Of a stretch of DNA of 64,000 bases, positions 39,833-55,972 are shown in pieces; within the stretch, counting starts at the first letter, position 1; each line of letters opens with the position of its first letter. The DNA comes from Desulfocapsaceae bacterium (GTDB lineage Bacteria; Desulfobacterota; Desulfobulbia; Desulfobulbales; Desulfocapsaceae): contig CAXXTV010000009.1 in assembly GCA_963674815.2 (NCBI GenBank), forward strand, positions 73,515 through 137,514. The letters run 5' to 3'. The position numbers and the translations under genes are program-made. The notes beneath the pieces are model-generated. The model saw nothing but the letters and a program-made list of their open reading frames with translations, was not told the origin of the DNA and did no database searches.

Positions 39833-40165
39833 CTACTTGCCGAAAAGACTGAAAAGAGCTTTTCTGGCAGAGCCCAACGCTGGCTGATGGGCGATCAATT
39901 CTTTTAACTCGCCCGGGTCAAGGTGGACAGCTCCGCAGTCTTTATTGACACAGATATCTATTTTGACATGCCCTTCGTCTATTTCAGCAAGGCTCTGCGT
40001 ACCACACCTGAAACAGTGGTATTTGTGTTCTTCGCAGTACTTCTCGCTGCACTCTTTGGCTGCTTTCTCGCGCAGTGCCTCGAGCAGTTTTTTGTCACGC
40101 TCTGCAAAAAAGGCTTCCTCTGATCCTTTGTGCACTACCTTTACTTTGACATCTTTTTGTGCCAT
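39833..40165 (-). CDS. zinc-ribbon (zf-TFIIB-like) domain protein
   Basis: 110 aa. CFRCGTQ...CVNKDCGAVHLDPGELKEL matches the CxxC...C..CgGvwlD.gEl pattern. Confidence 0.6.
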   Translation of the reverse strand: MAQKDVKVKVVHKGSEEAFFAERDKKLLEALREKAAKECSEKYCEEHKYHCFRCGTQSLAEIDEGHVKIDICVNKDCGAVHLDPGELKELIAHQPALGSARKALFSLFGK

Positions 40166-40759
40166 GACTCCTCTCCTCTGTGCTTATTCATGTGATTTTA
40201 TAACCTTGTAAGAAAAAAGGCCGCTTCCTAAAAGACGCTGATCTGGTATTTTTTAACCCCCTCTGCGCTTCGCTCTTCATGACGGTAAACATGATAATGA
40301 TGCGCTGCAAATCCTGTGCAATGGTATAAAACCTCACCAACACGTGTTTCTACGTTCAGCCTCTTTGTCAAGCAGGCGCCTTCTTTTACCGGATAACGAC
40401 GCCCGGCCAGTCAGAAGCCCGCTCCGGACGTATATAATACTGTCTTGTGTAAAAATATCAATCATCTAAGAACGATTTGCTCCGGCTGTTTTCAGTTTTG
40501 AAATAGTCACCATGGCAGTGTCTTTCTCGGTGTGCTCAGCTTGTTATTGGTCAAAACAGCTTGTCTCATGCCCGATCACGCCGATCAAGCCAGTCGCGTT
40601 ATGCCCAATTGAACCTTTATTCCCAGCGCTGCAAGTAACGGAGAGCACAGTTCTTGATATAGCATCAAACCGTGCTAATAATAGTGTCTACAGGTTGACT
40701 TTCTGCCTTATCACGGAAGAAGAGCAGGTGTAAATCTCAAAACCTCCAAGGAGAAGATT

Positions 40760-41044
40760 ATGACAACCCCGGAAGAAACAGTACCTGAAAAGACAAGTCT
40801 CGATAAAACGGTGGATATGCTCTCTGGTTTGAAGGAAATGATTCATTATGCAAAATCAAATATCGAAAAATTGTCTGAATTCTGGCTGTTTATGGAAGAT
40901 GAGGTAAAAAGAAAAGAATTTGCAGAAAAGATAGATGACCTCCTGGACAAGCAATCTTCCCTCCACAGTGATCTGGAGGAAACGGCCAATGAAATCCAGG
41001 CGGAGATAACCCGTATCAAAAATGAAGGGGGAACTTCACTGTAG
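40760..41044 (+). CDS. hypothetical coiled-coil protein
   Basis: 94-aa ORF preceded by AAGGAGAAG. No recognisable motif. Confidence 0.35.
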   Translation: MTTPEETVPEKTSLDKTVDMLSGLKEMIHYAKSNIEKLSEFWLFMEDEVKRKEFAEKIDDLLDKQSSLHSDLEETANEIQAEITRIKNEGGTSL

Positions 41045-41173
41045 CAACGCGCTGCAGTCGAGCGAAACAACAGCTGAGCACACCTGGACATAACCGGCAC
41101 TCTCTTGAGTATCAGCTTGGTGCCGGATCAAAACGACAGTGCGATTATGCCAGGCAGTCACTCTCTTCCACCA

Positions 41174-41201
41174 GGCCCGTAACCAGTCAAAGTTACGGGC
41201 C
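41174..41201. repeat. copy A of the leuU-terminator-like hairpin (GGCCCGTAAC-8 nt-GTTACGGGCC)
   Basis: Perfect 10-bp stem. The arms are identical to the hairpin at 50557-50584 and only the loop differs. It is followed by GCCGAA..ACTC, which resembles a collapsed tRNA-Leu 3' end. Confidence 0.6.
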
Positions 41202-41714
41202 GCCGAAACTCAGCCTTCTGTCTAGCCTGTTCTATCCACTCAAATCATGTGCTGATTCGATTCCGGAGTCACACCAACTGCGGCATCCAGGACAGGACCG
41301 GCGTCACTTGCCTTTTACCGATACTCCTTTCAGACAAGCAAAAGAGGCATGCCCGGCGCCGGGCAACGGGCTTCTGCTGGACAACTGAGTGATGATTACA
41401 GCAAACAGGTACTCATTTACCGGAAGAGCCGTGTAATCGACGTTTATCTTTCATGTATCACCCCGACCGAATCCCTTTTGTCTGGTATTGTGGATAATGT
41501 TTCCGGAAATCCGGATAAAAAAAGAGTTTTATTTCCAGTCAATTAGTTGACAAGATGCACATATTGACTGGAATCTCTGTGGGTTACCATAAATACCACA
41601 ATGTGGTGCAATAATTGCATAATTGTAATTACGTTTAGGCAACCCTAATTGATTATCGGTACATGATGTCTAATCGAACAAAGTCACATTAACTAGGCTC
41701 TGGAGATATATGTT

Positions 41715-42338
41715 ATGAAAAAGGTACTCGCACTACTGGTGAGCACACTCTTGCTGTCGATTGGCAGCGTTGCCTCAGCAGACCCGATTAACACCTTTAC
41801 CAGTTCGTTAACCTTCGAAGGATTCGCTGTCTATGCAGACCACCGAAGTGGTCCAGCATTCGGCCCGCTCTACGGAATCGGTTACGCCGAATATTATGGA
41901 GATGAAAACCTGCCAAGCGATTTGTCCATGGAGTATGACTGGACACTGAGCTATGATTTTCATGCCCAGGGCGTGTATACCACAGGTAGATCCTGGGATT
42001 ACTTTGATTACAATGTTTCCAGAAGTTTTGATCTAGGCAGTTTTGCCCTCGGTGACAGTGGAAATCCTGTCACATCTGGCAGGAGATTCATTGAGAATCT
42101 CGATCCATTTGCGTTCAGTCCCGGACTTGGCGGATACATGCATTTTGGTGACTGGGAACATGGTGTCGTGCTAGCAGGACTTTCTCTTCCCATCGCTAAT
42201 CTGAAGAGTGCACTTGTACGGTTCAATGGTGATGTCCAGTTAACGGCGGCGAGCCCTGTGCCCGAACCAGCAACAATGCTCCTGTTCGGAACAGGGTTAG
42301 CCGGTCTTGCCGGCGCGGCATTTAGAAAAAAGAAGTAA
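41715..42338 (+). CDS. PEP-CTERM sorting-domain secreted protein
   Basis: Signal peptide. C-terminal VPEPATMLLFGTGLAGLAGAAFRKKK (PEP motif, TM, basic tail). Confidence 0.85.
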   Translation: MKKVLALLVSTLLLSIGSVASADPINTFTSSLTFEGFAVYADHRSGPAFGPLYGIGYAEYYGDENLPSDLSMEYDWTLSYDFHAQGVYTTGRSWDYFDYNVSRSFDLGSFALGDSGNPVTSGRRFIENLDPFAFSPGLGGYMHFGDWEHGVVLAGLSLPIANLKSALVRFNGDVQLTAASPVPEPATMLLFGTGLAGLAGAAFRKKK

Positions 42339-42616
42339 AACCATAACACACACATCTGGAAGGATTTTCGGGCAGGGTATACACATATACCCTGCCTTTT
42401 TTAATTCAGCCGGACAGCTGGCTATCCCTTCATACCAGAGATAAAACGATAATTTTAATATGCATATTTGAACACATTGAACAATATTATTGCCATTAGT
42501 GATACTATTTCTGTACTTTACTAAACCAATTGCTATTCGTTATTATAGGTATTAATGTGCTTATATATACATCTTAAATAGGATAATATCGTTCAATGTG
42601 ATCAAATGGTAACATT

Positions 42617-42955
42617 ATGAAACATGAAAACATGTCTCCGCGTGCCATGGCGCAAGAGCTAGGCAACAGGGTGAGGCAGGCCAGGCTCCGGGCTGACCTG
42701 ACCCAGTCTGAGGTAGCGTCACGATCCGGCCTGAGCAGGAGGACCATCCTCAACGCTGAAAAAGGCAAGGTCCAGCTGGAGAATCTTGTCGCTATCCTGG
42801 CAGCGATGGATATGATCGCACACCTTGATATGTTTTTACCTGTGCAGGAAATATCCCCGATCCAGCTGGCAAAACTCAAAGGGCAGCAGCGGCAGCGGGC
42901 GTCAGGCACCAAGGACAAGAAAGCTCCAGGCAAGGAGTATAAACCATCATGGTAA
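42617..42955 (+). CDS. hipB: XRE-family HTH antitoxin (HipB-like)
   Basis: 112 aa. HTH (LGNRVRQARLRADLTQSEVASRSGLSRRTILNAEKG). Overlaps the hipA start by 7 nt. Confidence 0.75.
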   Translation: MKHENMSPRAMAQELGNRVRQARLRADLTQSEVASRSGLSRRTILNAEKGKVQLENLVAILAAMDMIAHLDMFLPVQEISPIQLAKLKGQQRQRASGTKDKKAPGKEYKPSW

Positions 42956-44268
42956 TGGATGTCGCCCGGGTAAAATACAGGGGACATACGATTGGTGCTG
43001 TCAGTTTTGACACTGAAACGGGCAGAGGCTCTTTTGAATTTGAGCCTCGTTTTATCGAAACAGGAATCGAGCTGTCGCCCATAAAAATGCCGTTGTCCCG
43101 AAAAATATATTCATTCCCGGAAGCTGACCCGGCAGCGTTTCATGGTCTGCCTGGAATGATCGCCGACTCGTTGCCTGACGATTTCGGCACCGCTGTATTA
43201 AATAGTTGGGCGGCCAGCCAGGGTATATCGCCCGCTGCTATTACCCCACTGCAACGCTTGAAATACACAGGCAAACGCGGCATGGGCGCCTTAACCTACC
43301 ATCCCGCTGTCCGCAAGAAAAACCTGAATGCTTCACAGCATGTCGAAATTCAGTCTCTGATTGCCATTGCCCAGGAAATCCTGGATAAGCGAGAGCATTT
43401 CCAGGTAAACCTTGGCACCCGGGGCCGGGAAGACAAAGAAGCAATGCTGGCCTTATTGTCGGTGGGTGTCAGCGCGGGTGGTGCCAGGCCAAAAGCGGTA
43501 CTCGCGTTTAACCGTGATTTCACACAGGTGCGCTCAGGGCAGACAGATGCTCCGGAAGGGTTTACTCATTATATAATGAAATTTGATGGCGTCAGTGAAC
43601 ACAATACAGACAGGGAGACCTTTGGCGACCCGCTCGGATATGGAGCGATGGAGTATGTCTATTACCTCTTGGCGACTGCTTGTGAAATAGAAATGATGCC
43701 GTGCCGCCTGCTCGATGAAGGGAAAAGGCGACATTTTGTCACCCAGCGCTTTGACCGGCAGGGAAATAAAAAGAACCATGTACAAACGTTAAATGGCCTG
43801 GTGCATGTCAGCTACAGGCAGGTAGGCTCCTTCTCGTATGCTGAACTGCTTGCGACCGCAAGAGAGCTTAAGTTAGGCGCCGATGACGCAATGCAGCTGT
43901 TCAGACGCATGGTGTTCAATGTTGTGGCACGAAACCATGATGATCATTCAAAAAACGTTTCATTCATGCTCGATGATCAACATCAATGGAAATTAGCCCC
44001 CGCTTACGACCTGGCCTACAGCTACAAGCCCGGCAGCCGTTGGGTAGATAGTCACTGGATGACGCTCAATGGGAAACGGGACAATTTCACCCGGGAAGAT
44101 TTTTACAGCTTTGAATCACTGAGTCCGTTATTCAGCAAGCGAACAATTGACGGGATAATAGATGAGGTTACAGAGCATGTTTCAAAATGGAAAACCTTGG
44201 CCACCGAGCACAGCGTGCCGAAATCATTGGTCAAGCTGATAGGAAGCAATTTACGCCTGTTGCTCTAG
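42949..44268 (+). CDS. hipA: HipA-family serine/threonine kinase toxin
   Basis: 439 aa. HipA N-terminal coupling region (GSFEFEPRF, LPGMIADSLPD) and kinase core (GGARPKAVL, ARNHDDHSKNVSFM, LAPAYDL). Confidence 0.85.
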   Translation: MVMDVARVKYRGHTIGAVSFDTETGRGSFEFEPRFIETGIELSPIKMPLSRKIYSFPEADPAAFHGLPGMIADSLPDDFGTAVLNSWAASQGISPAAITPLQRLKYTGKRGMGALTYHPAVRKKNLNASQHVEIQSLIAIAQEILDKREHFQVNLGTRGREDKEAMLALLSVGVSAGGARPKAVLAFNRDFTQVRSGQTDAPEGFTHYIMKFDGVSEHNTDRETFGDPLGYGAMEYVYYLLATACEIEMMPCRLLDEGKRRHFVTQRFDRQGNKKNHVQTLNGLVHVSYRQVGSFSYAELLATARELKLGADDAMQLFRRMVFNVVARNHDDHSKNVSFMLDDQHQWKLAPAYDLAYSYKPGSRWVDSHWMTLNGKRDNFTREDFYSFESLSPLFSKRTIDGIIDEVTEHVSKWKTLATEHSVPKSLVKLIGSNLRLLL

Positions 44269-44525
44269 CAATAGCTTGAGAGTACAGTTTTCTGAGGCCG
44301 TCCTGCGAAAACAAATAAAAAACCGAGTGTGATTCCATAAACGATATCTCACTCGGCCATTCTTCACCGGCGAACCTGCCTGGCAATCATTAACAGCATA
44401 TACGACATTGTAGTGTTGTTTATCTCGACACCAGCTATATCAGGGTAATCTTGAATAAACGCAATGAACAGAGACCCAACAGCTACAAATGAAAAACTTA
44501 TCGGAAATCCAGATGTTACTCAGAC

Positions 44526-44599
44526 AAAAAACACGAAAGACCCGTAACTATCTAAAGTTACATGTTTTTACGTCAATGGTGCGAAGACGGAAGGTGAAC
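44526..44599 (-). repeat. degenerate duplicate of the tRNA-Leu 3' end plus its terminator hairpin (att-like remnant, copy B)
   Basis: 44526-44599 aligns by eye, with roughly three quarters identity, to 50545-50620. Shared parts are the A-run, CGAAAG, the CCCGTAAC...AAAGTTAC hairpin, then TGGTGCGAAGACGGAAGGTGAAC versus TGGTGCCGAAGGCGAGACTCGAAC. Confidence 0.65.
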
Positions 44600-44845
44600 A
44601 GGTCATTCTGCATTGACGTTGGTTCATCGAGGAACAGTATCCCGCCCACATGATCTGCTAGGAAACTGGAGTCGTTGATTCTTCGGCAGCCACCGCATCA
44701 GTTACTAAAAAAGAAGAAAGGAAGTGTTTCTATGGATTTCTGAGCATGCACTTGATATCGTGGAGAAACAAAAGATACAAGCTATAGAGAGCCCAGAACT
44801 TCTCTATGAGAATCCCATAATTAAAATGCAAATAGATTTCCTCTC

Positions 44846-45922
44846 GTGAATACAAAACAAAAACTCCACGACTCTTTCATATTCTGCGTGTTCATGATGC
44901 TGGGGTCAATGCTGCCCGGTTGTATCATGGTACATGAACAGATTATCCCACATACTTTTTACACCCTTCTTGATCTCAAAGTTGAGGACGGGGATGTCCT
45001 GTGCTTACTAAAAAAACAAGAGACTCGATCGGAATTATCAGTAATGCACGCTATCATGAGTGAACCTTCAAAAACAGCTTACTCAAGTCAATCGGTCGCT
45101 CTTTTATCGTTTGGCCTGGAAGAGCTAATGAACGTGGATGAAGAAACAATAGAGGTTAAAACGCAGACAGAGGTAATTCATCGCAAAAGCATATTTGGAA
45201 ATATCCATCTAAGCATAATCAATGGAAGCTTACTGTTCGGAAGAGATGTCGTAAATGATTTAAAATATTTTGCTTTTATAGAGTTGTACGGAGAGAAGAA
45301 ATCCTACCCTCTATATGAGGATCCTAACGTCAGAGTGAAAATGAAGTCGCTGGACAATGAAAGAATGTATTATACGACCAACGACACGGATTATTACGTT
45401 TATTTCATCAAAGAGAAGAAATCCCAAAAACTTGAGTATACATTGGCTTCGCCTGATCCGGACAATGCAAACCTTGGCCCCGTCGAGTCATTAAGAGAAG
45501 ACCTTTTCATAGAATATGTCGGCGAGGATGCCAGTGTATTTAATAATGGAGTTCAAACGCCATACAAGGTGAAAATTGTAAATACGAGAACTAATCAGAC
45601 TTATTCCAATTTCATGCTCCCAAGCTACAGGTTGATATATGATTATCAGAACATTGAGCAGCATGAGGAGATACTTTCGAGGGCAGATTTCAGGGGAATT
45701 GCTATTTCAGATACATACGGTAATGTCTTACACTATTTATCTAAAGAGAAAATTCCGGAATATAGCAGAGCAATGTTCTACGAGGGTAAAGTAATCGCAG
45801 CAGGAACATCTGTACATCATGATCGTCTAGGGGATTTTCAATATATCGACATATTTATTTGGGACTATAAAAACGACAAACTGATCACTAAAAGTTATCG
45901 TTGCGGCAGGGCCGGCTTATAA
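44846..45922 (+). CDS. hypothetical protein, possible lipoprotein (AT-rich island)
   Basis: 358-aa ORF with a GTG start. N-terminal hydrophobic segment ending in LPGC. No recognisable family. Confidence 0.5.
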   Translation: MNTKQKLHDSFIFCVFMMLGSMLPGCIMVHEQIIPHTFYTLLDLKVEDGDVLCLLKKQETRSELSVMHAIMSEPSKTAYSSQSVALLSFGLEELMNVDEETIEVKTQTEVIHRKSIFGNIHLSIINGSLLFGRDVVNDLKYFAFIELYGEKKSYPLYEDPNVRVKMKSLDNERMYYTTNDTDYYVYFIKEKKSQKLEYTLASPDPDNANLGPVESLREDLFIEYVGEDASVFNNGVQTPYKVKIVNTRTNQTYSNFMLPSYRLIYDYQNIEQHEEILSRADFRGIAISDTYGNVLHYLSKEKIPEYSRAMFYEGKVIAAGTSVHHDRLGDFQYIDIFIWDYKNDKLITKSYRCGRAGL

Positions 45923-45927
45923 AGACG

Positions 45928-46009
45928 GTTAGTCTGAAAAGCACCTATCAAGAAATAGCACCATATGTGACATTGTGGTGCTTCTGAGCAAATCCTCTAA
46001 CGGTGTCGA
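45928..46009 (+). repeat. about 80-bp imperfect-palindromic repeat, copy 1
   Basis: Shares CCTATCAA...AGCACCAT.TG.GACATTGTGGTG.TT.GA.CAA.TCCTCTAA.GG.GTCGA with 50286-50361. Contains the hairpin 45957-45982 and outer GTTAG/CTAAC arms. Confidence 0.7.
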
Positions 46010-46115
46010 TAAGATAACGTATAATATTTTTCGCACATTTTTTTGAAGAGGTGGCCTCAACGTGGTTAATTGGCAGTCGCCAAACAAACCATAAACCACT
46101 TGAGGAGAGGCCACC

Positions 46116-46388
46116 ATGAAGGAACAATACACTAAGAAGCTTGGCAATGTCATTGAGATTAACGAATCTGAAGTACAGAATCACTTGGGTGAGTTGGTTC
46201 GCACGACGGTCGAAGAAACATTAAATTCAATGCTTGACGCCGAAGCTGATGCTTTATGTAACGCAACGAGGTATGAGCGAACCGAATCTCGCACTGATAC
46301 AAGGGCTGGTTACTATGAGCGTGATCTGCATACCCGCGCTGGAGAGGTAAAGTTGAAAGTCCCCAAACTGTCGATCAGCGTGCAATAA
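46116..46388 (+). mobile_element. IS256-family transposase, N-terminal remnant only (about 85 of about 400 aa)
   Basis: LNSMLDAEADALCNATRYERTESRTDTRAGYYERDLHTRAGEVKLKVPKL parallels IS256 Tnp (...EYERTENRQSQRNGYYERSFTTRVGTLELKVPR...). It terminates inside the 32-bp tandem duplication. The DDE core is absent. Confidence 0.8.
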
Positions 46389-46424
46389 TGAGCCCCAAAC
46401 TGTCGATCAGCGTGCAATAATGAG
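46361..46424. repeat. perfect 32-bp tandem duplication (2 copies) at the IS256-remnant junction
   Basis: CCCCAAACTGTCGATCAGCGTGCAATAATGAG occurs at 46361-46392 and again at 46393-46424. Confidence 0.95.
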
Positions 46425-46833
46425 CCCTTTGCAAGGGGATCTCGTCTAATCTTTTTTTCCGTGTTAATGCTCTATCACTTGATTCGTCTATAATCGGTTT
46501 ACTTATAGAGATATCACTATCATCGATAATGAATTTAGATGTCTCCCAGTTATTTGATATTTCTTTTGAGAGTCTGTACTGATGAATGGGATTTGGTATT
46601 TCCAAGGTTCGCCTTAATGTTCCAACCCTTGCAAGATTATATTTGATTGTGCTAGCAGATTTTTTAACACTAGTAATAGCTTCAGGTAGACCTAATATAT
46701 CAACAAAATCGCCAGCCACTGCTTCTGCAAATGAATCTGTATTGAAAGGAGGTGGTAATTCTGCTGGAAAATATCCAAATTTTAACAAGTCCGGAATGTC
46801 GATCATATTTTCGCCTAAATGTAATTTTCCCAT
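46375..46833 (-). pseudogene. N-terminal fragment of an Abi/UG-type reverse-transcriptase-like gene (truncated)
   Basis: GYFPAELPPPF plus YNLARVGTLRRTLEIPNPIHQYRLSKEI resembles the pre-RT and RT motif 1-2 region (IPK..G..R.L.IP...) of defence-associated RTs. The ORF stops in the 32-bp duplication before any YxDD motif. Confidence 0.4.
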
Positions 46834-47133
46834 TATGATGATGTATTTGTATTAATTATATTATCAGATCACTTGATAGGTTACTGCAATAGTTAGGGGT
46901 AACCCAACCAAAACAAATTTGCAAAGTAATTTCTAATAGTTAAGAATCATTCTTATAACAATCAGAATTGACATATTCCTATAAGAATGCAATGAAGCGT
47001 TTCTTAACATAGCAGACATACCACAATGTAACCTAACAAATTGTCCCTCGACTTTTCCAACTCTATCCTGCTAAAATAATAAGATTATTCCAGTTGAATC
47101 TTAATCACCAACTCCCAAAAGCGGAGATCAGGA

Positions 47134-47712
47134 ATGAAATGGGCTTTCGTTGACTACGAAAACACAGGTTCCCTTAAGGAGCTTAAACTCTCAGATTACG
47201 GTCGGATACTGGTTTTCTGTGGACCAAAGAACACTCAAATAAAATTCGGCTCAATACCGACAAATGAATTTTGTAGTATTGAAATCATTGGGGTCAGCAC
47301 AATGGGCTCAAACAACCTTGACTTCCATATAGCATTTCAACTTGGTCGATTCCATGAATCTGCAGGACCTGAAATAGAGTTCAATATTATTTCAAACGAC
47401 CATGGCTTTAATGGCCTTATAAGCCACCTCAAGAAGATTGGCCGCAAATGCAAAAGAATTCCTACCAAAACGATAGTTGAACCACCAAAAAAGAATGTGG
47501 TTTTAAGTGAGTGCGCATCTATTGTTATTACTCGGCTCACAGTATTAGATGGCAGAAAACGCCCGAGAAAAAAAGCAGGGTTAGTTAACTGGATAAAGTC
47601 GCAGTGCAATGGCATTTCCAATGGATCCAAACCTAGCCATGTATTCAAGGAATTAACCACTGCTAACCTGATTGGAGAAGATCAGAACAATATTCGTTAC
47701 AATCTTAAATAA
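47134..47712 (+). CDS. NYN/PIN-like nuclease-domain protein with C-terminal winged-helix-like region
   Basis: 192 aa. WAFVDYEN, NNLDFHI and IISNDHGFNGLISHLKKIG match the acidic-residue pattern of NYN/LabA-type domains (D.eN ... D ... SgD.DF). RBS GGAG is upstream. Confidence 0.5.
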   Translation: MKWAFVDYENTGSLKELKLSDYGRILVFCGPKNTQIKFGSIPTNEFCSIEIIGVSTMGSNNLDFHIAFQLGRFHESAGPEIEFNIISNDHGFNGLISHLKKIGRKCKRIPTKTIVEPPKKNVVLSECASIVITRLTVLDGRKRPRKKAGLVNWIKSQCNGISNGSKPSHVFKELTTANLIGEDQNNIRYNLK

Positions 47713-47714
47713 TC

Positions 47715-48272
47715 ATGCTATTCGAACGAGAATCTCTCCACTGTGGAAAGGCGTTGTTGGCATCGCTTGCTAAAGAGATTGAAGAAGTTGAGTCTGTCCT
47801 ATCCATTCAACAATGGGCACCTGATTTTTCTTATCCATCCAAGTCAACAACACTTCGTAATCAAGCCGCTTACAATAAGTCCCTATCAACATCTCTAGAT
47901 GAACTGGGATGGCAACTACAACCACGTCTTAGTCATTGTCCAAGCCTAATAGGAGATTTTGCAAAGAGACTTGTTTTTGGTGAAATTCAATTTGGAAACA
48001 GTACGACTCTATATCGAGACTTCTACAAATTTCAGTATGGGCTTCAAAATGGTTTATTGAGTCTTGCAATATTGGTTGTACCTTACGACGAATATTCGTT
48101 CTTTCCAACCCGTTCTGCAAGCGTTAAGAACATGGCTAATTTTTCTTTAGCAAAAAGATATTTCACTGTTTTACCGATATCAGTACCTACGATTATCTAT
48201 GGATTACACTCAAATGGACATAAAACATCTGCTGAAAAAACCTCTACAAGAGCACCACAGATGTTGCTCTAA
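47715..48272 (+). CDS. BglII-fold restriction-endonuclease-like protein
   Basis: 185 aa. GDFAKRLVFGEIQFGN parallels BglII DFGKRDTLVEVQFSN (D-x8-E-x-Q). LAILVVPYDEYSFFPTRSA...LPISVPTIIYGL parallels VAIIITKGHMFPASNS...VPIRLVGL. Confidence 0.55.
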   Translation: MLFERESLHCGKALLASLAKEIEEVESVLSIQQWAPDFSYPSKSTTLRNQAAYNKSLSTSLDELGWQLQPRLSHCPSLIGDFAKRLVFGEIQFGNSTTLYRDFYKFQYGLQNGLLSLAILVVPYDEYSFFPTRSASVKNMANFSLAKRYFTVLPISVPTIIYGLHSNGHKTSAEKTSTRAPQMLL

Positions 48273-48275
48273 ATT

Positions 48276-49232
48276 ATGATAGAAATGGCATCAAATAAAT
48301 TTTCAAACTTAACTTCCATTATCCTCTCCTTTGCTATCCTTATAGTAACAGGTTCAGCACTCATAATTGGTGCCGGGTCTGATGGTTTTATGTGGATACT
48401 AGCTGCAATATTTCTGTACTGCTCTGTCCATGCTTTTATCATTACTACCCTCCACGAAAAGAAAACGAGCATCTCTTCTCAAATATTTAAACGATTATTC
48501 CCAGACAAAGCACCTACTCCAAGACATAAGGCTAGAGAGCCATCACACGCCGGATCTTTTGCCAGTAAACAAAAGAGGAGTGACTCGACAAACTCAACAA
48601 GCAAAAGCAACAATTCCTCACTATCGATAAGAGATTACCTTTTCAAAAACCACCACCAGCTTAATGATGAAATCATTCATGCTATTGAATGGAAACGATT
48701 CGAGTTGTTATGCCATTTGATTTTCGAGGCATCAGGATACAATTCGGAATTAACTGGAGATGGGGCTGATGAAGGCATAGATATACGGATATACGATACA
48801 AGCGTTCCTCGGAAACCACTCTATCTTGTCCAATGTAAGAAATATCGAGGTAATCAGAAAATAAGCAGAGAGAATATCCAACAGTTGAGAGGACAGATGG
48901 CTACCGAGAATGTTGAGAAAGGTGGCTACTGCTCAACTGGAAGCTTTACTGGTCCTGCCAGAGAATACGCAAAGACTAACAATATTGAGATATTCGACCA
49001 AAAGAAAATCATCAAGTCATTCAATAAACTGAACAATTTTGACAGAGAAATTACCCTGAGGAGATTACTTAATGGAGATTACTGGACTCCTTCCTGCGCG
49101 ACGTGCGGTGAGAAATTTAGACCCAAGAAGACCAAGAAAGGCAATATGATCTGGTGGTGTAAAAGCTCTCATACGCACGGCTGGAGTAGTATTTCCTATT
49201 ACGAAGCGGCACCAATAAAGAACGTTCATTAA
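48276..49232 (+). CDS. membrane-anchored Mrr-like PD-(D/E)xK restriction endonuclease with C-terminal zinc ribbon
   Basis: 318 aa. Two N-terminal TM helices. Mrr_cat pattern FELLCHLIFEASGY...GDGADEGIDIRIY...LYLVQCKKYRGNQKISRENIQQLRG...GGYCSTGSFTGPAREYA. C-terminal CATCGEKF...WWCKSSHTHGW. Confidence 0.7.
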   Translation: MIEMASNKFSNLTSIILSFAILIVTGSALIIGAGSDGFMWILAAIFLYCSVHAFIITTLHEKKTSISSQIFKRLFPDKAPTPRHKAREPSHAGSFASKQKRSDSTNSTSKSNNSSLSIRDYLFKNHHQLNDEIIHAIEWKRFELLCHLIFEASGYNSELTGDGADEGIDIRIYDTSVPRKPLYLVQCKKYRGNQKISRENIQQLRGQMATENVEKGGYCSTGSFTGPAREYAKTNNIEIFDQKKIIKSFNKLNNFDREITLRRLLNGDYWTPSCATCGEKFRPKKTKKGNMIWWCKSSHTHGWSSISYYEAAPIKNVH

Positions 49233-49625
49233 TTGGAATTCATCACAATGAAATTACCAGTTTTTTTATATAATTTTTCAAAAACTTACGTACCCTCTGT
49301 ACTTTTTCTATGTATCTCGTATTTGCTGACGAACAATTTTGCAAATATTCCTAAAATCATTTTCCCTTTTCAATCTACTGAGCGATATCAACATGCAGTA
49401 CCCCTAAACAAGCAAACACCAGAGGAAAATCATCCCAGACCCTCAGCAAAACCTATACCAACAGCTCCCAAGTACTACTATATAGTTGAATTTACTAATG
49501 GTGGAAGTATGAAAGCCAAAGAGATCAAGACAAACAATAATATCGTCAAAATTATTATCAGTGATAGTTATGATATGACCATGTCAAAAAGTGATATTAG
49601 ATCGATCAACAAATACAGTTTATAA
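49233..49625 (+). CDS. small hypothetical membrane protein
   Basis: TTG 49233 abuts the previous stop; ATG 49248 is an alternative. One hydrophobic helix (YVPSVLFLCISYLL). No known motif. Confidence 0.4.
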   Translation: MEFITMKLPVFLYNFSKTYVPSVLFLCISYLLTNNFANIPKIIFPFQSTERYQHAVPLNKQTPEENHPRPSAKPIPTAPKYYYIVEFTNGGSMKAKEIKTNNNIVKIIISDSYDMTMSKSDIRSINKYSL

Positions 49626-49671
49626 TTACACACCGAACCTAATAGTATCTGAAGCTCTAGGTACATAAACT

Positions 49672-49899
49672 ATGACCACCTATTCATATGACAACAGGCC
49701 TTCTATGACCAAAGGAGCCATTTCAAGCCGTATCAGGCATATTGCGAAAGAAAACGAGTATCATGTTCGAAAAAGTAAGGGGCTCTGGTATATCGGAAAT
49801 ATGGCCTGCCCTCCAAGAGCTACTCCTCACGAAGGCTTAACTGACGAGCAAGCAATAGAGTGGATAAAAGAGAACGGCTATTTCAAATATCCGGTCTGA
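49672..49899 (+). CDS. small hypothetical protein (75 aa)
   Basis: ORF in the same orientation within the operon. No recognisable motif. Confidence 0.35.
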   Translation: MTTYSYDNRPSMTKGAISSRIRHIAKENEYHVRKSKGLWYIGNMACPPRATPHEGLTDEQAIEWIKENGYFKYPV

Positions 49900-49914
49900 C
49901 TAAAAGCAAGTTAT

Positions 49915-50253
49915 ATGGCCGAATCGAAAGTATTTGAATGTACTAATTGTGGGAAAACCGTTGAGTCTTGGTCTGACGGAAATCCATACTATTATGATTG
50001 GGAAACAGGAAAGAAGAAATATGCCTATCACCCCAATCACGAGGGTCTCGCGCTTTGCATAGGAAATGATGAAGAGCATCTCTGCCTATCTTGCGGACAG
50101 GAATTCAAAATAGATAATCAAACCCCAATTTCCAAATGTCCAGACTGCTCATCGAATCAAATATCAAAGACAATTTTTCTTGATGACGAAGAGTGTCCAT
50201 TCTGCAAGAATGGATTGTTCAAATATTACCCGAAGCGAAGTTCAATTTCTTAA
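49915..50253 (+). CDS. double zinc-ribbon protein (112 aa)
   Basis: Four CxxC pairs (CTNC, CLSC, CPDC, CPFC). Confidence 0.45.
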   Translation: MAESKVFECTNCGKTVESWSDGNPYYYDWETGKKKYAYHPNHEGLALCIGNDEEHLCLSCGQEFKIDNQTPISKCPDCSSNQISKTIFLDDEECPFCKNGLFKYYPKRSSIS

Positions 50254-50285
50254 TAGAAAAAGTAACCTTCTTAATCCATCACCAT

Positions 50286-50361
50286 CACAGAAAACGCCTA
50301 TCAACCAGTAGCACCATGTGCGACATTGTGGTGTTTTGAACAAGTCCTCTAATGGGGTCGA
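50286..50361 (+). repeat. about 80-bp imperfect-palindromic repeat, copy 2
   Basis: Same orientation and architecture as 45928-46009, including the hairpin 50310-50335. Lies directly after the last operon gene. Confidence 0.7.
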
Positions 50362-50544
50362 GGATTGTTTCTCTCAAAAAGAAATCCAACTAAAGAAATC
50401 CAACTAATCCAAGCATGGTCGATCATTCAAATACCATAGCAACATTTATCCGAGCTAAAAATCGGTTAGGGCACAACTAATAGTCAAAGACTACCAGGTA
50501 AAACAATTAAGGAAAATGGTACTTGCCGGAAGATTTAAAGGGGC

Positions 50545-50584
50545 AAAAAAACGAAAGGCCCGTAACCAATTAAAGTTACGGGCC
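50545..50584 (-). terminator. rho-independent terminator of tRNA-Leu (copy C of the repeated hairpin)
   Basis: GGCCCGTAAC/GTTACGGGCC 10-bp stem at 50557-50584. On the minus strand it is followed by TTTCGTTTTTTT (50545-50556). Confidence 0.8.
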
Positions 50585-50595
50585 TTTTATGTAAA

Positions 50596-50681
50596 TGGTG
50601 CCGAAGGCGAGACTCGAACTCGCACGACCGTGGGCCACTACCCCCTCAAGATAGCGTGTCTACCAGTTCCACCACTTCGGC
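50596..50681 (-). tRNA. leuU: tRNA-Leu (anticodon GAG), CCA encoded
   Basis: The reverse complement reads GCCGAAGTGGTGGAACTGGTAGACACGCTATCTTGAGGGGGTAGTGGCCCACGGTCGTGCGAGTTCGAGTCTCGCCTTCGGCACCA. It has a 7-bp acceptor stem, anticodon loop TTGAGGG, a long variable arm and a GTTCGAGTC T-loop. It lies 12 nt after secG, as in the E. coli secG-leuU arrangement. Confidence 0.95.
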
Positions 50682-50693
50682 ACTATATCTGCT

Positions 50694-51080
50694 CTATTGG
50701 GCCGGTTTCTCCTCTTCTGCCGGCTGGACAGCCTGCTCTGCTGTCTTTACTGCCTCCTGCTCTTCAGGTACGATGAGTTCCGCTTCCTTCTGGACCGGCT
50801 GTTCCGCTGCCGGCTGTTCACTGGTCAGCGAGCTCATTACCGAGCCGGAACCGCTTTGCGCCGACAGGTAGGCAAGAGATATCGAGGTGACCATGAAGAC
50901 AACCGCCGCAAATGTGGTGATCTTGTTCAACAGCGGCAGCGGTCCTTCAGTGCCGAAAAGAGACTGGCTTGAACCACCGAAGGTGGCACCTATGTCAGCT
51001 CCCTTTCCGTGCTGAAGAAGCACGATGCCTATCAGGAACAGGCACACAATAACATGGACGATGATCAGTATGGTCTGCAT
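50694..51080 (-). CDS. secG: preprotein translocase subunit SecG
   Basis: MQTILIIVHVIVCLFLIGIVLLQHGKGADIGATFGG is canonical SecG. It has an acidic, Pro/Glu-rich C-terminal tail. Confidence 0.95.
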   Translation of the reverse strand: MQTILIIVHVIVCLFLIGIVLLQHGKGADIGATFGGSSQSLFGTEGPLPLLNKITTFAAVVFMVTSISLAYLSAQSGSGSVMSSLTSEQPAAEQPVQKEAELIVPEEQEAVKTAEQAVQPAEEEKPAQ

Positions 51081-51082
51081 CT

Positions 51083-51859
51083 CTATTTTTTCTGCTTGAA
51101 ATTAATAATCCGCCCGAATGATTCACTATCCAGGGCGGCTCCGCCAACCAGCGCTCCATCGATATCGGGTTGGGCCATCAGCTCATCGATGTTGACAGGT
51201 TTGACCGAGCCACCATACAATATTCTCAAACCCTCGGCAACACCTTTTTCAAAAAGACTCTCAACCAGCCCCCGGATGAAGGCGTGGGCCTCCTGGGCCT
51301 GCTCGTTTGAGGCAATCTTGCCGGTGCCGATAGCCCAGACCGGCTCATAGGCGATGACAACCTTTTCCATCTGTCTGGCGCTGACCTGGGCAAGCCCGGT
51401 TTTAATCTGTTTCTCGAGGACCGAAAATGTCGTGCCGCCCTCCCGTTCTTCGAGGGCCTCGCCGACACAGAGGATCACCTGCAATTTGAATTTAAGCGCT
51501 CCCCGTACCCGCTTGTTGACAAGCTCATCGGTTTCGCCAAAAATCTGGCGACGCTCCGAGTGGCCGACAATCGCGGCCGAAGCTCCGGCATCCCTGAGCA
51601 TGGTCGGGGAAATCTCCCCGGTAAAGGCGCCGGAAGTCTCCCAACAGACGTTCTGGCCGGCAACGATCACCCCGGAATCACCGATGACATGAGACACTTC
51701 ACTGATGATGGTATAGGGAGGCGCAATCAGCACTTCACGGTCCTGCCGATCTGTAAACGCTTTGGCAACGCCGGCGGCAAGGGCACAGCCATCGACCAGG
51801 GTCGTGTGCATTTTCCAGTTTCCGGCGATAAGGGCTTTTCTCTTCATCCTGTTCTCCAC
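51083..51859 (-). CDS. tpiA: triosephosphate isomerase
   Basis: AGNWKMH, VGHSERR and IAYEPVWAIGTG motifs. Alternative ATG start at 51847. Confidence 0.95.
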   Translation of the reverse strand: MENRMKRKALIAGNWKMHTTLVDGCALAAGVAKAFTDRQDREVLIAPPYTIISEVSHVIGDSGVIVAGQNVCWETSGAFTGEISPTMLRDAGASAAIVGHSERRQIFGETDELVNKRVRGALKFKLQVILCVGEALEEREGGTTFSVLEKQIKTGLAQVSARQMEKVVIAYEPVWAIGTGKIASNEQAQEAHAFIRGLVESLFEKGVAEGLRILYGGSVKPVNIDELMAQPDIDGALVGGAALDSESFGRIINFKQKK

Positions 51860-51868
51860 TCTCTATAG

Positions 51869-53044
51869 TTATTGCAGCGCTTCAACGCCGGGCAGTTTTT
51901 TGCCTTCCATCAATTCCAGAAAAGCGCCCCCACCAGTTGACATATAACTGATATTCCCGCTTTCCCCAGCCTTCTTGACCGCTGCATTTGAGTCCCCGCC
52001 GCCGGTAATCGACAGCGCATGCGAGGCAGCAACCGCATGGCAGAGCGCCATAGTCCCACGGGCAAACGGATCCATCTCAAAAGCTCCCATCGGACCGTTC
52101 CAGACGATTGTCCTGGCGTCAGCCAGCGCCTCCTGGAAGTAGGTGGTGGTCGCCGGGCCGATGTCCAGTGCCAGCCAGCCCTGCGGGATATCCCGGAAGG
52201 TGACGCACTTTGTCACCGCGTCGGCTGCAAATCGGTCTGCAACGACAAAATCAAAGGGCATGTAGATTTTAACCCCTTTCTTCTCGGCTGCATCGACCAG
52301 TGTCCGCGCCGCATCCAGCAGATCCTCCTCGACGAGCGAGCCGCCCATGTCGACTCCCTGGCTTTTCAGGAATGTGTTGGCCATTGCCCCGCCGATTATC
52401 AGTTTGTCGACACGGTCGAGCATATTCTGCAGGGCTCCGAGTTTCGATGACACCTTGGCCCCGCCGATCAGGGCGACGAGCGGCCTGACCGGATCACCCA
52501 TGGCCCTGGCGAAATAATCAAGCTCTTTCTGCAGCAGCAGGCCGGCACCTTTTTCGGCGACATGGGCGGTAACCCCGCTTACCGAGGCGTGGGCGCGGTG
52601 GGAGACGGCAAAGGCATCATTGATGTAGACATCGCCGAGCCGGGCAAGATCTTTTGAAAACTGGGGATCATTTTTCGTTTCCTGCCCGTAAAACCTCAGG
52701 TTCTCGAGAAGAAGCAGATCTCCGGGCTGGAGAGCCGCAGCCTTTGCTTCGACCTCCTTGCCGACACAGTCCGGCACAAACTGCACCTCGGTGTCCATCA
52801 GGCGGCCGAGGTGCGCCGCCACCGGAGCCATGCTGAAAGACTCAACCCGCTTGCCTCCAGGCCGCCCGAAATGGGAGCAGATGACGGCCTTTCCGCCCTG
52901 TGCCCGGATATATTCAAGGGTCGGCAGAGCCATTTTCATGCGGATATCATCGGTGATGTTCTTCTCGTCATCCATCGGCACGTTAAAATCCACCCGGACC
53001 AGTACACGCTTGTTTTTCAGGTCGATATCACGAATACTTTTCAT
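51869..53044 (-). CDS. pgk: phosphoglycerate kinase
   Basis: 391 aa. VRVDFNVP, SHFGRP and STGGGAFLE motifs. Confidence 0.95.
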   Translation of the reverse strand: MKSIRDIDLKNKRVLVRVDFNVPMDDEKNITDDIRMKMALPTLEYIRAQGGKAVICSHFGRPGGKRVESFSMAPVAAHLGRLMDTEVQFVPDCVGKEVEAKAAALQPGDLLLLENLRFYGQETKNDPQFSKDLARLGDVYINDAFAVSHRAHASVSGVTAHVAEKGAGLLLQKELDYFARAMGDPVRPLVALIGGAKVSSKLGALQNMLDRVDKLIIGGAMANTFLKSQGVDMGGSLVEEDLLDAARTLVDAAEKKGVKIYMPFDFVVADRFAADAVTKCVTFRDIPQGWLALDIGPATTTYFQEALADARTIVWNGPMGAFEMDPFARGTMALCHAVAASHALSITGGGDSNAAVKKAGESGNISYMSTGGGAFLELMEGKKLPGVEALQ

Positions 53045-53523
53045 TTTGCCTGTCCTTCCCCGCCAAGGTTTAGAATTTTTTTCAATACCAGTGCATCATC
53101 GGAGGGCTGTCTGTAATAGTTAATTCGCCTGCCGACTTCTGTAAAGCCGTGGCCCAGATAAAAAGTGATGGCAGCGTGGTTGCGGGACCGCACTTCAAGA
53201 TACATCTCGCCGACGCTCTGCTGCCGGTACAAACTGAAAAAGCCTTCCAGCAGCATGGAGCCAAGCCCCCGGCGCCGCACTGACGGCCGGACCGAAATCC
53301 TCAACAGCTCTGCTTCAAAGGTGCTGTGGCGGCAGCACCCCCAGCCAGCGACGGAGGTGCCGTCACAAACAACAAGCGCTGCACCATCGAAGCGCCCGAG
53401 CTCTGCTGCGATCGATGCTTCAGACCAGGCCGAAAGCTCAGCGCTTTCAAGAGCCGCAACAACGGGAATATCGGCTGCTGCCAGGCGTCTGATCGAGCAA
53501 TTCTCAGACCATGCTGTCTGCAA
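53041..53523 (-). CDS. rimI: GNAT acetyltransferase, RimI-like (ribosomal-protein-alanine N-acetyltransferase)
   Basis: 160 aa. RRRGLGSMLL acetyl-CoA motif and an EVRSRNHAAITFYLGHGF end. Confidence 0.7.
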   Translation of the reverse strand: MQTAWSENCSIRRLAAADIPVVAALESAELSAWSEASIAAELGRFDGAALVVCDGTSVAGWGCCRHSTFEAELLRISVRPSVRRRGLGSMLLEGFFSLYRQQSVGEMYLEVRSRNHAAITFYLGHGFTEVGRRINYYRQPSDDALVLKKILNLGGEGQAK

Positions 53524-54715
53524 CTTTTTCCGTCAGGTCGCCGAGCATGTTGGTATAACTGCCAAGCTCGTTGTCGTACCATCCGTAAATAACTGCCTGG
53601 GTTACCGGTACTTCGAGCATTTCCCCACCGCTCACTGCCGAGGCCTCGGTCCTGGACAGGTTCACCCGGATCGTGGCAGTCCGCGTGTGGGTTTCACTCC
53701 CCTCGATAACCGCGGCGGCTTTCGGCAGTCCGATGATATCGGAAGAAACATTCTGCTTTTCGGTAAATACCAGGTAATCATTGCTCACTGCGTAATCCCG
53801 GTACACGGCGTTGATGAATTCCCGCCTGGTCGGGTTCCCCGGCTCATCCTGGATATTGATGACGAGCACGATCAATGACCCGGTCGATGTCGGAATCCGG
53901 ACCGACTCGGCAATAAAGCCGATATTCTTCATCTCCGGGATAACAAGTCCCAGCGCCTTGGCAGCTCCTGTTGTGGTAAGAATGATGTTGTTCAAAATTG
54001 AACGATTCTTCCTCAGATCAGCGGCGCCCGCCTTGGGCAGGCGGTCGAGCACCTGCTGGCTGCCTGTCGCGGCATGAACGGTCACCATGGAGGCGCTGAG
54101 CAGGTTCTCGGCCCCGATCGTTTCCAGCAGCGGTTTGATCATGTATGACAGGCAGGTGGTCGTGCACGATGCTGCCGAAATAATGTGGTGCCGGGAGGGA
54201 ATGTAGTCATCATCATTTATGCCCATGACCGTGGTCACTGCATCGCCCGGCATGTCGAGCCCTTTTGACTTGATCTTGAAAGGGGCCGAAAGCATCACCT
54301 TGACGGCACCTGCCTCGAGATGGCCCCGCAGCGCACCGCCGGGGTCGCCGGGGTCGGTCGTCGGATCATTGAAGGCGCCGGTCGTGTCGACCACCAACCC
54401 GACTCCATTTTGTCGCCAGGCGATATCTTTGGGGTTCCGGGATTTTCTCAGGATTTTTACCGGAACGCCATCGATCAGCATCGAGCCGTGCTCCTCGTCC
54501 AGTCCTTCAATAACACGCCCGCCGCGATGCCCATGGAGGTAGGAACCAAGTCGGCCATAAGTTGAATCCCGTTCGATAGAGGCCGCCAGGTCTTCGAGAT
54601 TGTTGCCGACATTACGGCCGATATTCACAACAATTTCCGAGAAATGTTTGCGCGACACATGGCTCCACAAAGAAAGTTTGCCAATGCGTCCGAGACCGTT
54701 GATACCTAATTTCAT
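53504..54715 (-). CDS. gap: glyceraldehyde-3-phosphate dehydrogenase (long form, about 403 aa)
   Basis: MKLGINGLGRIGKL N-terminus, active site SAASCTTTC, and WYDNE near the C-terminus. Start taken at ATG 54715, 6 nt after AGGGGGAGG. The tracked 5' extension to 54913 is not credible. Confidence 0.9.
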   Translation of the reverse strand: MKLGINGLGRIGKLSLWSHVSRKHFSEIVVNIGRNVGNNLEDLAASIERDSTYGRLGSYLHGHRGGRVIEGLDEEHGSMLIDGVPVKILRKSRNPKDIAWRQNGVGLVVDTTGAFNDPTTDPGDPGGALRGHLEAGAVKVMLSAPFKIKSKGLDMPGDAVTTVMGINDDDYIPSRHHIISAASCTTTCLSYMIKPLLETIGAENLLSASMVTVHAATGSQQVLDRLPKAGAADLRKNRSILNNIILTTTGAAKALGLVIPEMKNIGFIAESVRIPTSTGSLIVLVINIQDEPGNPTRREFINAVYRDYAVSNDYLVFTEKQNVSSDIIGLPKAAAVIEGSETHTRTATIRVNLSRTEASAVSGGEMLEVPVTQAVIYGWYDNELGSYTNMLGDLTEKVADSMV

Positions 54716-54907
54716 GGTCATCCTCCCCCTTTTTGAGTAGGTTGTACTGTCCGGCGGCTGTTCGTCATACAAAGAAAAGTCGTCACTTGTCATGTTACTG
54801 TTCAGCTGGGCCTGCACGTCGCCCGGCCCTGGACGAAAAGGCCAACAGCGCTGCAGCCCACAGCCTCCATTAATAGCACACACAGCACAAAATTCCAGTT
54901 CATTATC

Positions 54908-55621
54908 ATGCAATTTGCAACGAAATTACAGCAGGCGACCCTGATCCGCCGCTACAAGAGATTCCTCGCCGACGTACGCTGTCCCGACGGCAGCGAGATG
55001 ACCATACACTGCCCCAACTCCGGTTCGATGCGTTCATGTTCGGAGCCCGGCAGTGTTATCTGCTACTCGTTTTCGGACAACCCGAAGCGGAAATACCCGC
55101 ACACCCTTGAAATGGTCCAGGTAAATAGTACCTGGGTCGGCGTCAATACCTCACTGACCAACCGCATCGTCGCCGAGGCCTGCAAAAGTGGAGGAATCAG
55201 TGAATTCAAGACATTTGACAGCCTCAGCCGGGAGGTCACAACCTCCGAGGGCAACCGGCTGGACCTGCTGCTGGTCTCGGCAGGCCGCAAAACCTATATA
55301 GAGATAAAGAGCAGTACGCTGGTGACGGACCGGTGCGCGCAGTTCCCTGATGCCGTCACCGCCCGCGGGACCAGGCATCTCCAGGAACTGGTCCGGCTTG
55401 TTGAGCTGGGCCATTCCGGGGTGATATTCTTCCTCGTCCAGAGAGACGACGCCGACCGCTTTGAACCGGCAGCCGCCATCGACCCGCGCTATGCCCGGAC
55501 GCTTGTCGAGGCTCACGAAAAAGGCGTCAAAATTCTTGTCTACCAGGCATCCGTCACGCCGCAGTCGATCACGATAGTCCGCCCGCTGCCCTGCACGTTG
55601 CCGGATATCAGCGACATCTAA
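54908..55621 (+). CDS. sfsA: sugar fermentation stimulation protein SfsA
   Basis: 237 aa. LIRRYKRFLADV...HCPNSGSM is the SfsA N-terminal signature. Confidence 0.9.
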   Translation: MQFATKLQQATLIRRYKRFLADVRCPDGSEMTIHCPNSGSMRSCSEPGSVICYSFSDNPKRKYPHTLEMVQVNSTWVGVNTSLTNRIVAEACKSGGISEFKTFDSLSREVTTSEGNRLDLLLVSAGRKTYIEIKSSTLVTDRCAQFPDAVTARGTRHLQELVRLVELGHSGVIFFLVQRDDADRFEPAAAIDPRYARTLVEAHEKGVKILVYQASVTPQSITIVRPLPCTLPDISDI

Positions 55622-55972
55622 AACCGATGCTGCTGCTGAAACGAACAGACAGGCCGTCCATGGCCTGCCGTCAGTTGCGGACGTCCTGTCCGCAACCCTC
55701 CGGGCCCGTTGCAGCTCCACGGCGGGCCTCCGCGATGCGTCCGGAAGCAATGCCCGCCGCCTCCCTGGTCGCAGATATCTGCGATTGAGGCCGACGAACC
55801 TTTTTTTAACAATAATCAGTGTATGAGAACCTCGTAGAAACAGAATCGATGGCTAAGTAAAAACTTCGATAAACAAGAAGTGGTGTTTTTTCAAGTGTGA
55901 AGGCATACATATGGTATGTCGAGTGCTTGAAAAAGTGCCACGACGCAGGAGATCGGACTTTTTACGACGCCA

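Follow-up and report, generated by a model that had tools for sequence, protein, structure and literature searches.

A solitary compact nuclease with a predicted BglII fold in a Desulfocapsaceae bacterium, and the rare bacterial and archaeal clade to which it belongs

The gene considered here lies in a 64,000-nucleotide stretch of the genome of a Desulfocapsaceae bacterium (assembly GCA_963674815.2, contig CAXXTV010000009.1, positions 73,515 to 137,514 of the forward strand), which we refer to as the window and number from its first letter. Its product is a small relative of the restriction endonuclease BglII, and it is best filed as a BglII-fold nuclease that is not part of a Type II restriction-modification system. 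The gene and the conserved parts of its product are located as follows.

47715..48272, forward strand: gene of the compact nuclease with the BglII/BamHI fold, 185 amino acids (aa), supported by its open reading frame (ORF), Pfam PF09195, an AlphaFold2 (AF2) model and Foldseek
47955..47990, forward strand: catalytic motif D81-x8-E90-I-Q92, of the BglII type in which Q replaces the canonical K, placed by alignment to BglII, BstYI and BamHI
47991..48017, forward strand: invariant F93-G94-N95-S96 ... Y100-R101 at the start of helix 98-111, taken from the invariant columns of the alignment

Residues 80-95 of the nuclease read GDFAKRLVFGEIQFGN and are encoded by nucleotides 47952-47999, with D81 at 47955-47957 (gat), E90 at 47982-47984 (gaa) and Q92 at 47988-47990 (caa). 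An original prediction, made from the letters of the window and their translations, had set these three residues against D84, E93 and Q95 of BglII, and the codon positions show that the range it gave for the motif, nucleotides 47955-47990, is exact. For the catalytic register, a profile of 39 family members was aligned to PDB sequences. It placed BglII DFGKRDTLVEVQFSN on 'DFrKglvFvEiQFGN', with D84/E93/Q95 falling on D81/E90/Q92 just as had been proposed, and it brought BstYI DFVKDRVAIEVQFGK into the same register, with D119/E128/Q130 on those residues. BamHI E111-F-E113-T-G-N116 aligned with E90-I-Q92-F-G-N95 of the nuclease, and BamHI T114-G115-N116...H121-R122 with the segment F93-G94-N95-S96...Y100-R101. 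The C-terminal strands, which the same prediction had called collinear, are indeed collinear with BamHI residues 108-184. BglII itself has Q where the canonical K would be expected, and a single metal ion has been seen at its active site (PMC4081073). Across the 39 family members D81 never varies, and no less than 90% of them have E90 and Q92; N95, R101, R133 and N139 are invariant as well, and the family has near-invariant stretches such as FGEIQFGNSxTLYRDFYKFQYGLQNGLLSLAVLIVP.

The assignment to the BglII family by profile was narrow: PF09195 (Endonuc-BglII) matched the nuclease at E 7.1e-6 and 26.3 bits, a borderline pass of its gathering cut-off of 26 bits. Pfam found no further domain in the protein, which consists of a single domain of 167-185 aa; PADLOC gave a weak REase_II match, and a phmmer search against PDB sequences reached BamHI at E 0.009. 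The family core comprises residues 1-168, and the tail of residues 169-185 is non-conserved, of low confidence and disordered in the AF2 model. That model, built on the family alignment, has a predicted local distance difference test score (pLDDT) of 88.8 and a predicted template-modelling score (pTM) of 0.84. When it was searched against the PDB with Foldseek, 14 chains were matched at E 4e-8 to 1.1e-5, all of them BglII, BstYI, BamHI or OkrAI. The best was BglII (1d2i_A, E 4.2e-8, query template-modelling score (TMq) 0.71), and the next match outside the 14 stood at E 0.5. Structure prediction and fold search thus bear out the BglII fold that had been proposed from the catalytic spacing, with no other enzymes among the significant PDB matches, and the modelled nuclease resembles that fold far beyond chance.

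A word-indexed search returned 303 homologs, mostly of 161-186 aa and with 53-86% identity to the query, which carry precomputed PF09195 matches and often PF02923 matches too. In databases the clade goes under the name 'BglII/BstYI family type II restriction endonuclease', and a literature search found no paper on a compact orphan clade of this kind; PF09195 has been listed as bacterial only (PMC3424549). A hidden Markov model (HMM) search of 1.84 billion cluster representatives gave 26 at E <= 1e-30, many of them fragments, and matches weaker than about E 1e-13 were mostly canonical-sized BglII/BstYI-like proteins of 190-260 aa that aligned over profile positions ~45-168 only. This break in size and score marks the compact form (~167 aa) as a tight and rare clade inside PF09195. 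The 48 loci on which the comparisons below are based come from a pattern scan of one genome for each of about 185,000 species. The bacterial loci fall in Thermodesulfobacteriota, Chloroflexota, Planctomycetota, Latescibacterota, Bacillota, Bacteroidota, Pseudomonadota and others, and the archaeal ones in Methanosarcinales, Methanoperedens, ANME-2, Methanomicrobiaceae and Bathyarchaeia.

The original prediction had also held that no cognate methylase lies nearby, and this proved correct at every scale: in the operon, in the whole genome and in 47 of the 48 family loci. Neither Pfam nor PADLOC finds a methyltransferase in the operon or the surrounding island, and the gene upstream encodes a PIN7-domain protein in place of the controller (C) protein known from the BamHI and BglII systems. 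The search of the whole host genome (4.34 Mb, 92.5% complete) for an orphan methyltransferase that might match the nuclease gave no match to PF02086 (D12), PF01555 (N4/N6) or PF00145 (C5), searches that give matches in 5-10 of 14 control genomes. Its two matches to PF02384 (N6_Mtase) are PrmC (242 bits, above the cut-off) and a TrmN-like small tRNA methyltransferase. The host may therefore have no DNA methylation altogether, and yet it carries both Mrr-type and BglII-fold nucleases. All three families are likewise absent from five other carrier genomes.

When all ORFs of 140 aa or more within about 3.5 kb of the 48 loci were scanned for motifs, a DNA methyltransferase was found near the nuclease in a single case. 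This is a Methanoperedens locus (L033), in which a D12 enzyme on the opposite strand lies 0.9 kb downstream; whole-genome searches confirmed it, and the methyltransferases of the other carriers are located elsewhere in their genomes. A 770-aa protein with a DndB domain also lies near the nuclease at that locus (L033:3533-6692). None of the large neighbour proteins that were inspected is a methyltransferase, and single-member PADLOC matches to MTase_II, REase_MTase_IIG and type I systems among the neighbours could be traced to no ORF with a DNA-methyltransferase catalytic motif. The positive control was a set of PF09195 relatives of canonical length (227-248 aa), three of four of which have a convergent methyltransferase next to them: two C5 enzymes and, at a contig end, a fragment with HPCQFPEEL...DPFLGSGTT, an N4/N6 signature. 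Because the fourth control locus itself ends at a contig end, the contrast in adjacency is 1/48 for the compact loci against at least 3/4 for the canonical-length controls. Over whole carrier genomes, D12 is present in 12/48, N4/N6 in 37/48 and C5 in 18/48, and one carrier has dozens of matches.

A nuclease of this family that acted on ordinary DNA would find no shortage of targets in its host. The genome has 621 GGATCC, 951 AGATCT and 23,482 GATC sites; each 6-bp palindrome occurs at least 63 times, and no 8-bp palindrome is missing. The sixteen 8-mers with a GATC core are all close to their Markov expectation, and GGATCC is mildly depleted, at 0.74 of expectation. These counts also dispose of the idea that the enzyme recognises a long or rare site that is missing from the host. 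BamHI and BglII could be cloned only after their methylases (PMC4081073). Since the host has no DNA methyltransferase and candidate sites throughout its genome, a constitutive cutter of unmodified palindromes is not tenable, and the normal frequency of palindromes argues against cleavage of an unmodified short palindrome.

The compact nuclease is sporadic in its distribution, being found in one of the 151 genomes of the host's order (the host itself, where it is single-copy). The maximum-likelihood tree mixes archaeal with bacterial sequences, well-supported branches force at least two changes between the domains, and single phyla are present in both major clades. This mixing shows horizontal transfer, apparently within anaerobic sediment communities; the locus turns up in metagenome runs from sediment, salt-marsh and marine samples, which are either DNA or of unlabelled kind, with no RNA label among them. 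That the gene belongs to phages or plasmids was considered and rejected, as a search of 72,556 plasmids and 50,697 phage records gave nothing and 2.9 million viral contigs gave a single match. Against its 86%-identical syntenic ortholog, the nuclease shows a ratio of nonsynonymous to synonymous divergence (dN/dS) of 0.10 at dS 0.78. The low-GC island in which it lies, comprising the PIN7, BglII-like, Mrr and 130-aa ORF genes, is ~78% identical at the nucleotide level to the corresponding island of L008, the same as the flanking secG-tpiA-pgk (window 40000-56000). The equal identity of island and flank indicates that the island predates the split of both genomes despite its low GC, and together with the dN/dS it indicates that the nuclease gene has been kept under purifying selection since they diverged.

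Essentially no mutual similarity exists among the immediate same-strand neighbours at the 48 loci, and the nuclease gene therefore behaves as a self-contained unit. Where the upstream gene can be identified, it encodes, for example, a PIN7 protein, DUF1353, a NucS_C-like nuclease, McrB_N-HNH or a TPR protein; in other cases it is a 1801-aa PD40/CARDB surface protein, a hisD-hisC operon, Cas1 or a SHOCT/bPH protein. The Cas1 gene of Methanolobus vulcani precedes the nuclease gene by 19 nt (L042:4774-5973). Nothing indicates that the small upstream ORFs act as controller proteins or antitoxins, as ten that were scanned have no helix-turn-helix (HTH) or controller domain and no mutual similarity. 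The sole recurrent small neighbour that we saw is a conserved 60-aa ORF ~55 nt downstream of the nuclease in four loci of Methanosarcinales/Methanoperedens (L025, L030, L032 and L038).

Genes of defence and mobility are common around the loci, including HNH (7 proteins), integrases, SLFN-type helicases, ResIII, DndB/PbeA, PLD and Cas1, along with PADLOC matches to AbiO, Nhi, PDC-S11, MADS and SspH. The commonest recognisable immediate neighbours are modification-dependent nucleases. Mrr lies directly downstream in the window and in L008, and SRA-HNH does so in L047; in L031 the same position is held by an SRA-HNH homolog assigned by BLAST clustering, of which only the HNH part reaches the Pfam threshold. 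SRA-HNH is two genes downstream in L002/L009, McrB_N-HNH directly upstream in L012, and an Mrr_cat_2-helicase adjoins the nuclease in L013. Further loci contain DpnI_C and mREase_IV matches.

In the window, the neighbours of the nuclease on its low-GC island (~44.5-50.4 kb, GC 0.36-0.40 vs 0.55 in the flank) are these.

47134..47712, forward strand: PIN7-domain gene upstream of the nuclease, 192 aa (PF18475 at 1.7e-23)
48276..49232, forward strand: Mrr_cat (Type IV-like) nuclease gene downstream, 318 aa (PF04471 at 6.9e-27; PADLOC)
49233..50253, forward strand: three trailing small same-strand ORFs of 130, 75 and 112 aa, the last with a zinc ribbon, noted as context
50596..50681, reverse strand: tRNA-Leu(GAG), the right edge of the low-GC island

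The stop of the PIN7 gene is 2 nt before the start of the nuclease gene, and the Mrr_cat gene starts 3 nt past its stop. Besides the window, a close syntenic relative (L001/L008) is the only place where PIN7 and Mrr accompany the nuclease, and neighbours elsewhere are unrelated. The suggestion that the nuclease is activated by its operon partners consequently finds no support as a rule for the family. An obligate PIN7-BglII-Mrr system was rejected on similar grounds, given that the trio is confined to the window and this relative and that PIN7 has varied partners of its own.

The PIN7 protein belongs to its own tightly conserved family of ~193 aa, with 55-60% identity across many taxa and with members in the cultured Nitrosococcus wardiae and Desulfosarcina ovata. 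Elsewhere its gene is found with SIR2_2 downstream, or with a REase-ARP/PDDEXK_13 PD-(D/E)XK gene upstream in overlapping stop/start arrangement; GmrSD_N and an unannotated 664-aa protein are further neighbours. PIN7 may be a recurrent module of defence islands. The Mrr_cat protein has an N-terminal hydrophobic region, possibly transmembrane, and a C-terminal zinc ribbon, and its PADLOC matches are PDC-S02 (a candidate system, and the best match) and mREase_IV. To the left, a 90-aa N-terminal stub of a Mutator/IS256-family transposase on the forward strand abuts a 152-aa N-terminal fragment of a Drt4/Drt6-type reverse transcriptase on the reverse strand (window 46116-46833), and the pair appears to be what insertion and deletion have left of a defence gene. 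At its left edge the island has a low-GC ORF of 358 aa (window 44846-45922) without any Pfam, NCBIfam or PADLOC match, and for the L001 counterpart of this ORF no Pfam match is on record. On the left side of the island is also a HipB-like/HipA toxin-antitoxin pair (window 42617-44268; Couple_hipA + HipA_C), which the syntenic relative L001 has kept, with its HipA broken into two ORFs.

How, then, could a gene of this kind be carried safely? The explanation that agrees best with the genomic context, which we tentatively prefer and to which we would give somewhat less than an even chance, is that the nuclease is a stand-alone, modification-dependent restriction enzyme of a Type IIM/IV-like kind. 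By analogy with BglII, the protein would be a compact BglII/BamHI-fold endonuclease that acts as a Mg2+-dependent homodimer with D81/E90/Q92 as its active site; helices 98-111 and 143-152 are presumably the counterparts of the dimer-interface helices of BamHI. A GATC-like core in its recognition site is plausible because G94-N95 and R101 align with G115-N116 and R122 of BamHI, which we take to be the base contacts to the inner GATC in the BamHI-DNA structure. The host would be spared if only DNA bearing a modification that the host does not make were cleaved, and we hypothesize that the catalytic domain itself recognises this modification within its target site, as BisI-family enzymes do. On this view the gene is a self-contained accessory unit, passed horizontally between bacteria and archaea of anaerobic sediments and functioning with no cognate methyltransferase; in the window it sits with the Mrr-type enzyme and the PIN7 protein in an old island beside tRNA-Leu. 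A more specific form of this proposal seems to us possible but doubtful, namely that the clade represents the first Type IIM branch of the BamHI/BglII family: a ~167-aa single-domain homodimer that senses a modified base within a GATC-type palindrome with no base flipping or reader domain and provides one-gene immunity across Bacteria and Archaea.

Several observations weigh against modification dependence. The nuclease has no separate modification-reader domain, which most modification-dependent enzymes possess, and we know of no characterised member of the BamHI/BglII group that is modification-dependent. The clustering with Type IV genes may be mere general clustering in defence islands. 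Furthermore, no class of methyltransferase is depleted among the carriers (D12, N4/N6 and C5 in the proportions given above), which makes dependence on the methylation of a whole class unlikely and leaves a specific methylated sequence or an uncommon phage hypermodification as the target. Two particular versions accordingly found no support. If the enzyme were DpnI-like and dependent on Gm6ATC, carriers would be expected to lack Dam-class enzymes, but D12 is present in 12/48 carriers vs 5/14 control genomes; as D12 specificities vary, this counts against such an enzyme without being decisive. Dependence on the whole 5-methylcytosine or N4-methylcytosine class is at odds with the presence of C5 in 18/48 and of N4/N6 in 37/48.

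Alternatively, the nuclease might cut unmodified DNA, that of the host included, and be checked by low expression, translational coupling or an infection cue, serving in abortive-infection-type or otherwise regulated defence. Its intact active site is what such an effector would need, its neighbourhoods are rich in defence genes (AbiO, Nhi, SLFN-helicase, HNH, PLD, Cas1, DndB), and a same-strand ORF ends at most 250 nt upstream in 32/48 loci; in the window, where those 2 nt separate the gene from PIN7, it lacks an obvious ribosome-binding site. The difficulty is that no conserved partner, antitoxin or sensor travels with it, as the ORFs upstream and downstream are dissimilar across loci and the ten small upstream ORFs lack any HTH or controller-protein domain. 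One 167-aa domain also offers little space for a sensor, and long vertical retention at dN/dS 0.10 with candidate sites throughout the genome suggests an enzyme that is intrinsically safe, so that we consider a gated effector unlikely. Nor does it seem at all likely that the substrate is something other than a short palindrome in ordinary duplex, as it would be for a rare-site, structure- or damage-specific nuclease of a nicking or repair type, or for a selfish homing-like gene. The fold group is known only for cutters of palindromic duplex DNA, no insertion target or flanking gene is conserved, and the excess of defence and Type IV genes nearby suggests a role in defence; with one of 151 genomes in the order and 48 loci in ~185,000 species genomes, the gene is too sporadic for repair. 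What speaks for such a substrate is that the gene is solitary and set between unrelated genes, including housekeeping operons, that its sequence is highly conserved across domains and that its tree is dominated by horizontal transfer.

A conventional Type IIP enzyme would fit the precedent of the canonical PF09195 relatives, which are ordinary restriction-modification nucleases, provided that the host were shielded by a methyltransferase that is unlinked or has escaped recognition, or else by a modification other than methylation. Some N4/N6 methyltransferase is present elsewhere in 37/48 carriers, the D12 enzyme of L033 is only 0.9 kb away, and assemblies are incomplete (92.5% for the host). 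Unlinked cognate pairs are rare in Type II systems, however, and the host and five other carriers are devoid of any D12, N4/N6 or C5 enzyme. A methyltransferase is adjacent in 1/48 loci vs 3/4 controls, and BamHI and BglII are not clonable without prior methylation (PMC4081073), all of which renders this explanation improbable. Finally, the protein is shorter than BglII, BstYI and BamHI, and the catalytic positions are not wholly uniform, with K at the E90 position in two family members and H at the Q92 position in one, as might occur in a non-catalytic DNA-binding protein derived from a restriction enzyme. The invariance of D81 and the conservation of E90/Q92 at 90% or above in both bacteria and archaea are instead those expected of an active enzyme, and we give the loss of catalysis very little credence.

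The textbook restriction enzymes BamHI and BglII are lethal unless their methylases are present. The nuclease described here, a well-conserved relative with the same catalytic machinery, lives without a methylase, even where the genome has no DNA methylase at all, and the paradox of self-toxicity is thus real and general to the clade. Either this familiar scaffold now serves to detect foreign DNA that is modified, or the host is kept safe in some other way. In the first case, the clade would offer a compact new class of reagent for mapping DNA modifications and a single-gene defence module common to bacteria and archaea. The question is one of a single small gene, and cultured methanogen carriers exist: Methanococcoides alaskense DSM 17273 (L037) and Methanolobus vulcani B1d (L042).

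Among known systems, the solitary modification-dependent Type IV enzymes Mrr, SRA-HNH (TagI/ScoA3IV) and McrB_N-HNH resemble the compact nuclease in standing alone and are its frequent neighbours, but they have unrelated folds and domains, and each contains a dedicated modification-binding domain. END nucleases such as END-PaCF1 are methylase-less, Type IIS-like enzymes that target hypermodified phage DNA (PMC12191111). They share with the compact nuclease a likeness to restriction enzymes and the absence of the expected methyltransferase, and they differ in having a separate sensing domain (an inactive EndoIII) where the nuclease described here has a single BglII-fold domain.

For host safety, we propose the BisI family as a working analogy. 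BisI, NhoI and Eco15I are small homodimeric orphan Type IIM PD-(D/E)XK enzymes with a short palindromic site, and they read the methyl groups in duplex DNA with no base flipping and no separate reader domain (PMC11347163). The compact nuclease is likewise an orphan, small and of a single domain. The BisI catalytic signature, on the other hand, is that of the PD-QxK Mrr-like subgroup; no BisI-family entry is among the significant matches of the PDB sequence and fold searches, which return BamHI-group enzymes only; and modification dependence has been demonstrated for BisI enzymes, whereas for the compact nuclease we infer it.

The nuclease stands closest to the Type IIP enzymes BglII/BstYI (PF09195) and BamHI/OkrAI (PF02923), whose BamHI-like alpha/beta/alpha fold it is predicted to share (Foldseek E 4e-8, TMq 0.66-0.71). 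With BglII and BstYI it has in common the D-x8-E-x-Q register and its 'DFxK' and 'QFGN/QFSN' context, and with BamHI it apparently retains the dimer-interface helices (98-111 and 143-152), an interface assignment that we presume. It is nonetheless 35-55 residues shorter than these enzymes, ending right after the last core strand (~BamHI residue 184), and both here and family-wide it differs from them in having no adjacent methyltransferase or controller gene. Compared with ordinary Type II enzymes, the compact clade is far more conserved across phyla, and it is found in archaea as well as in bacteria.

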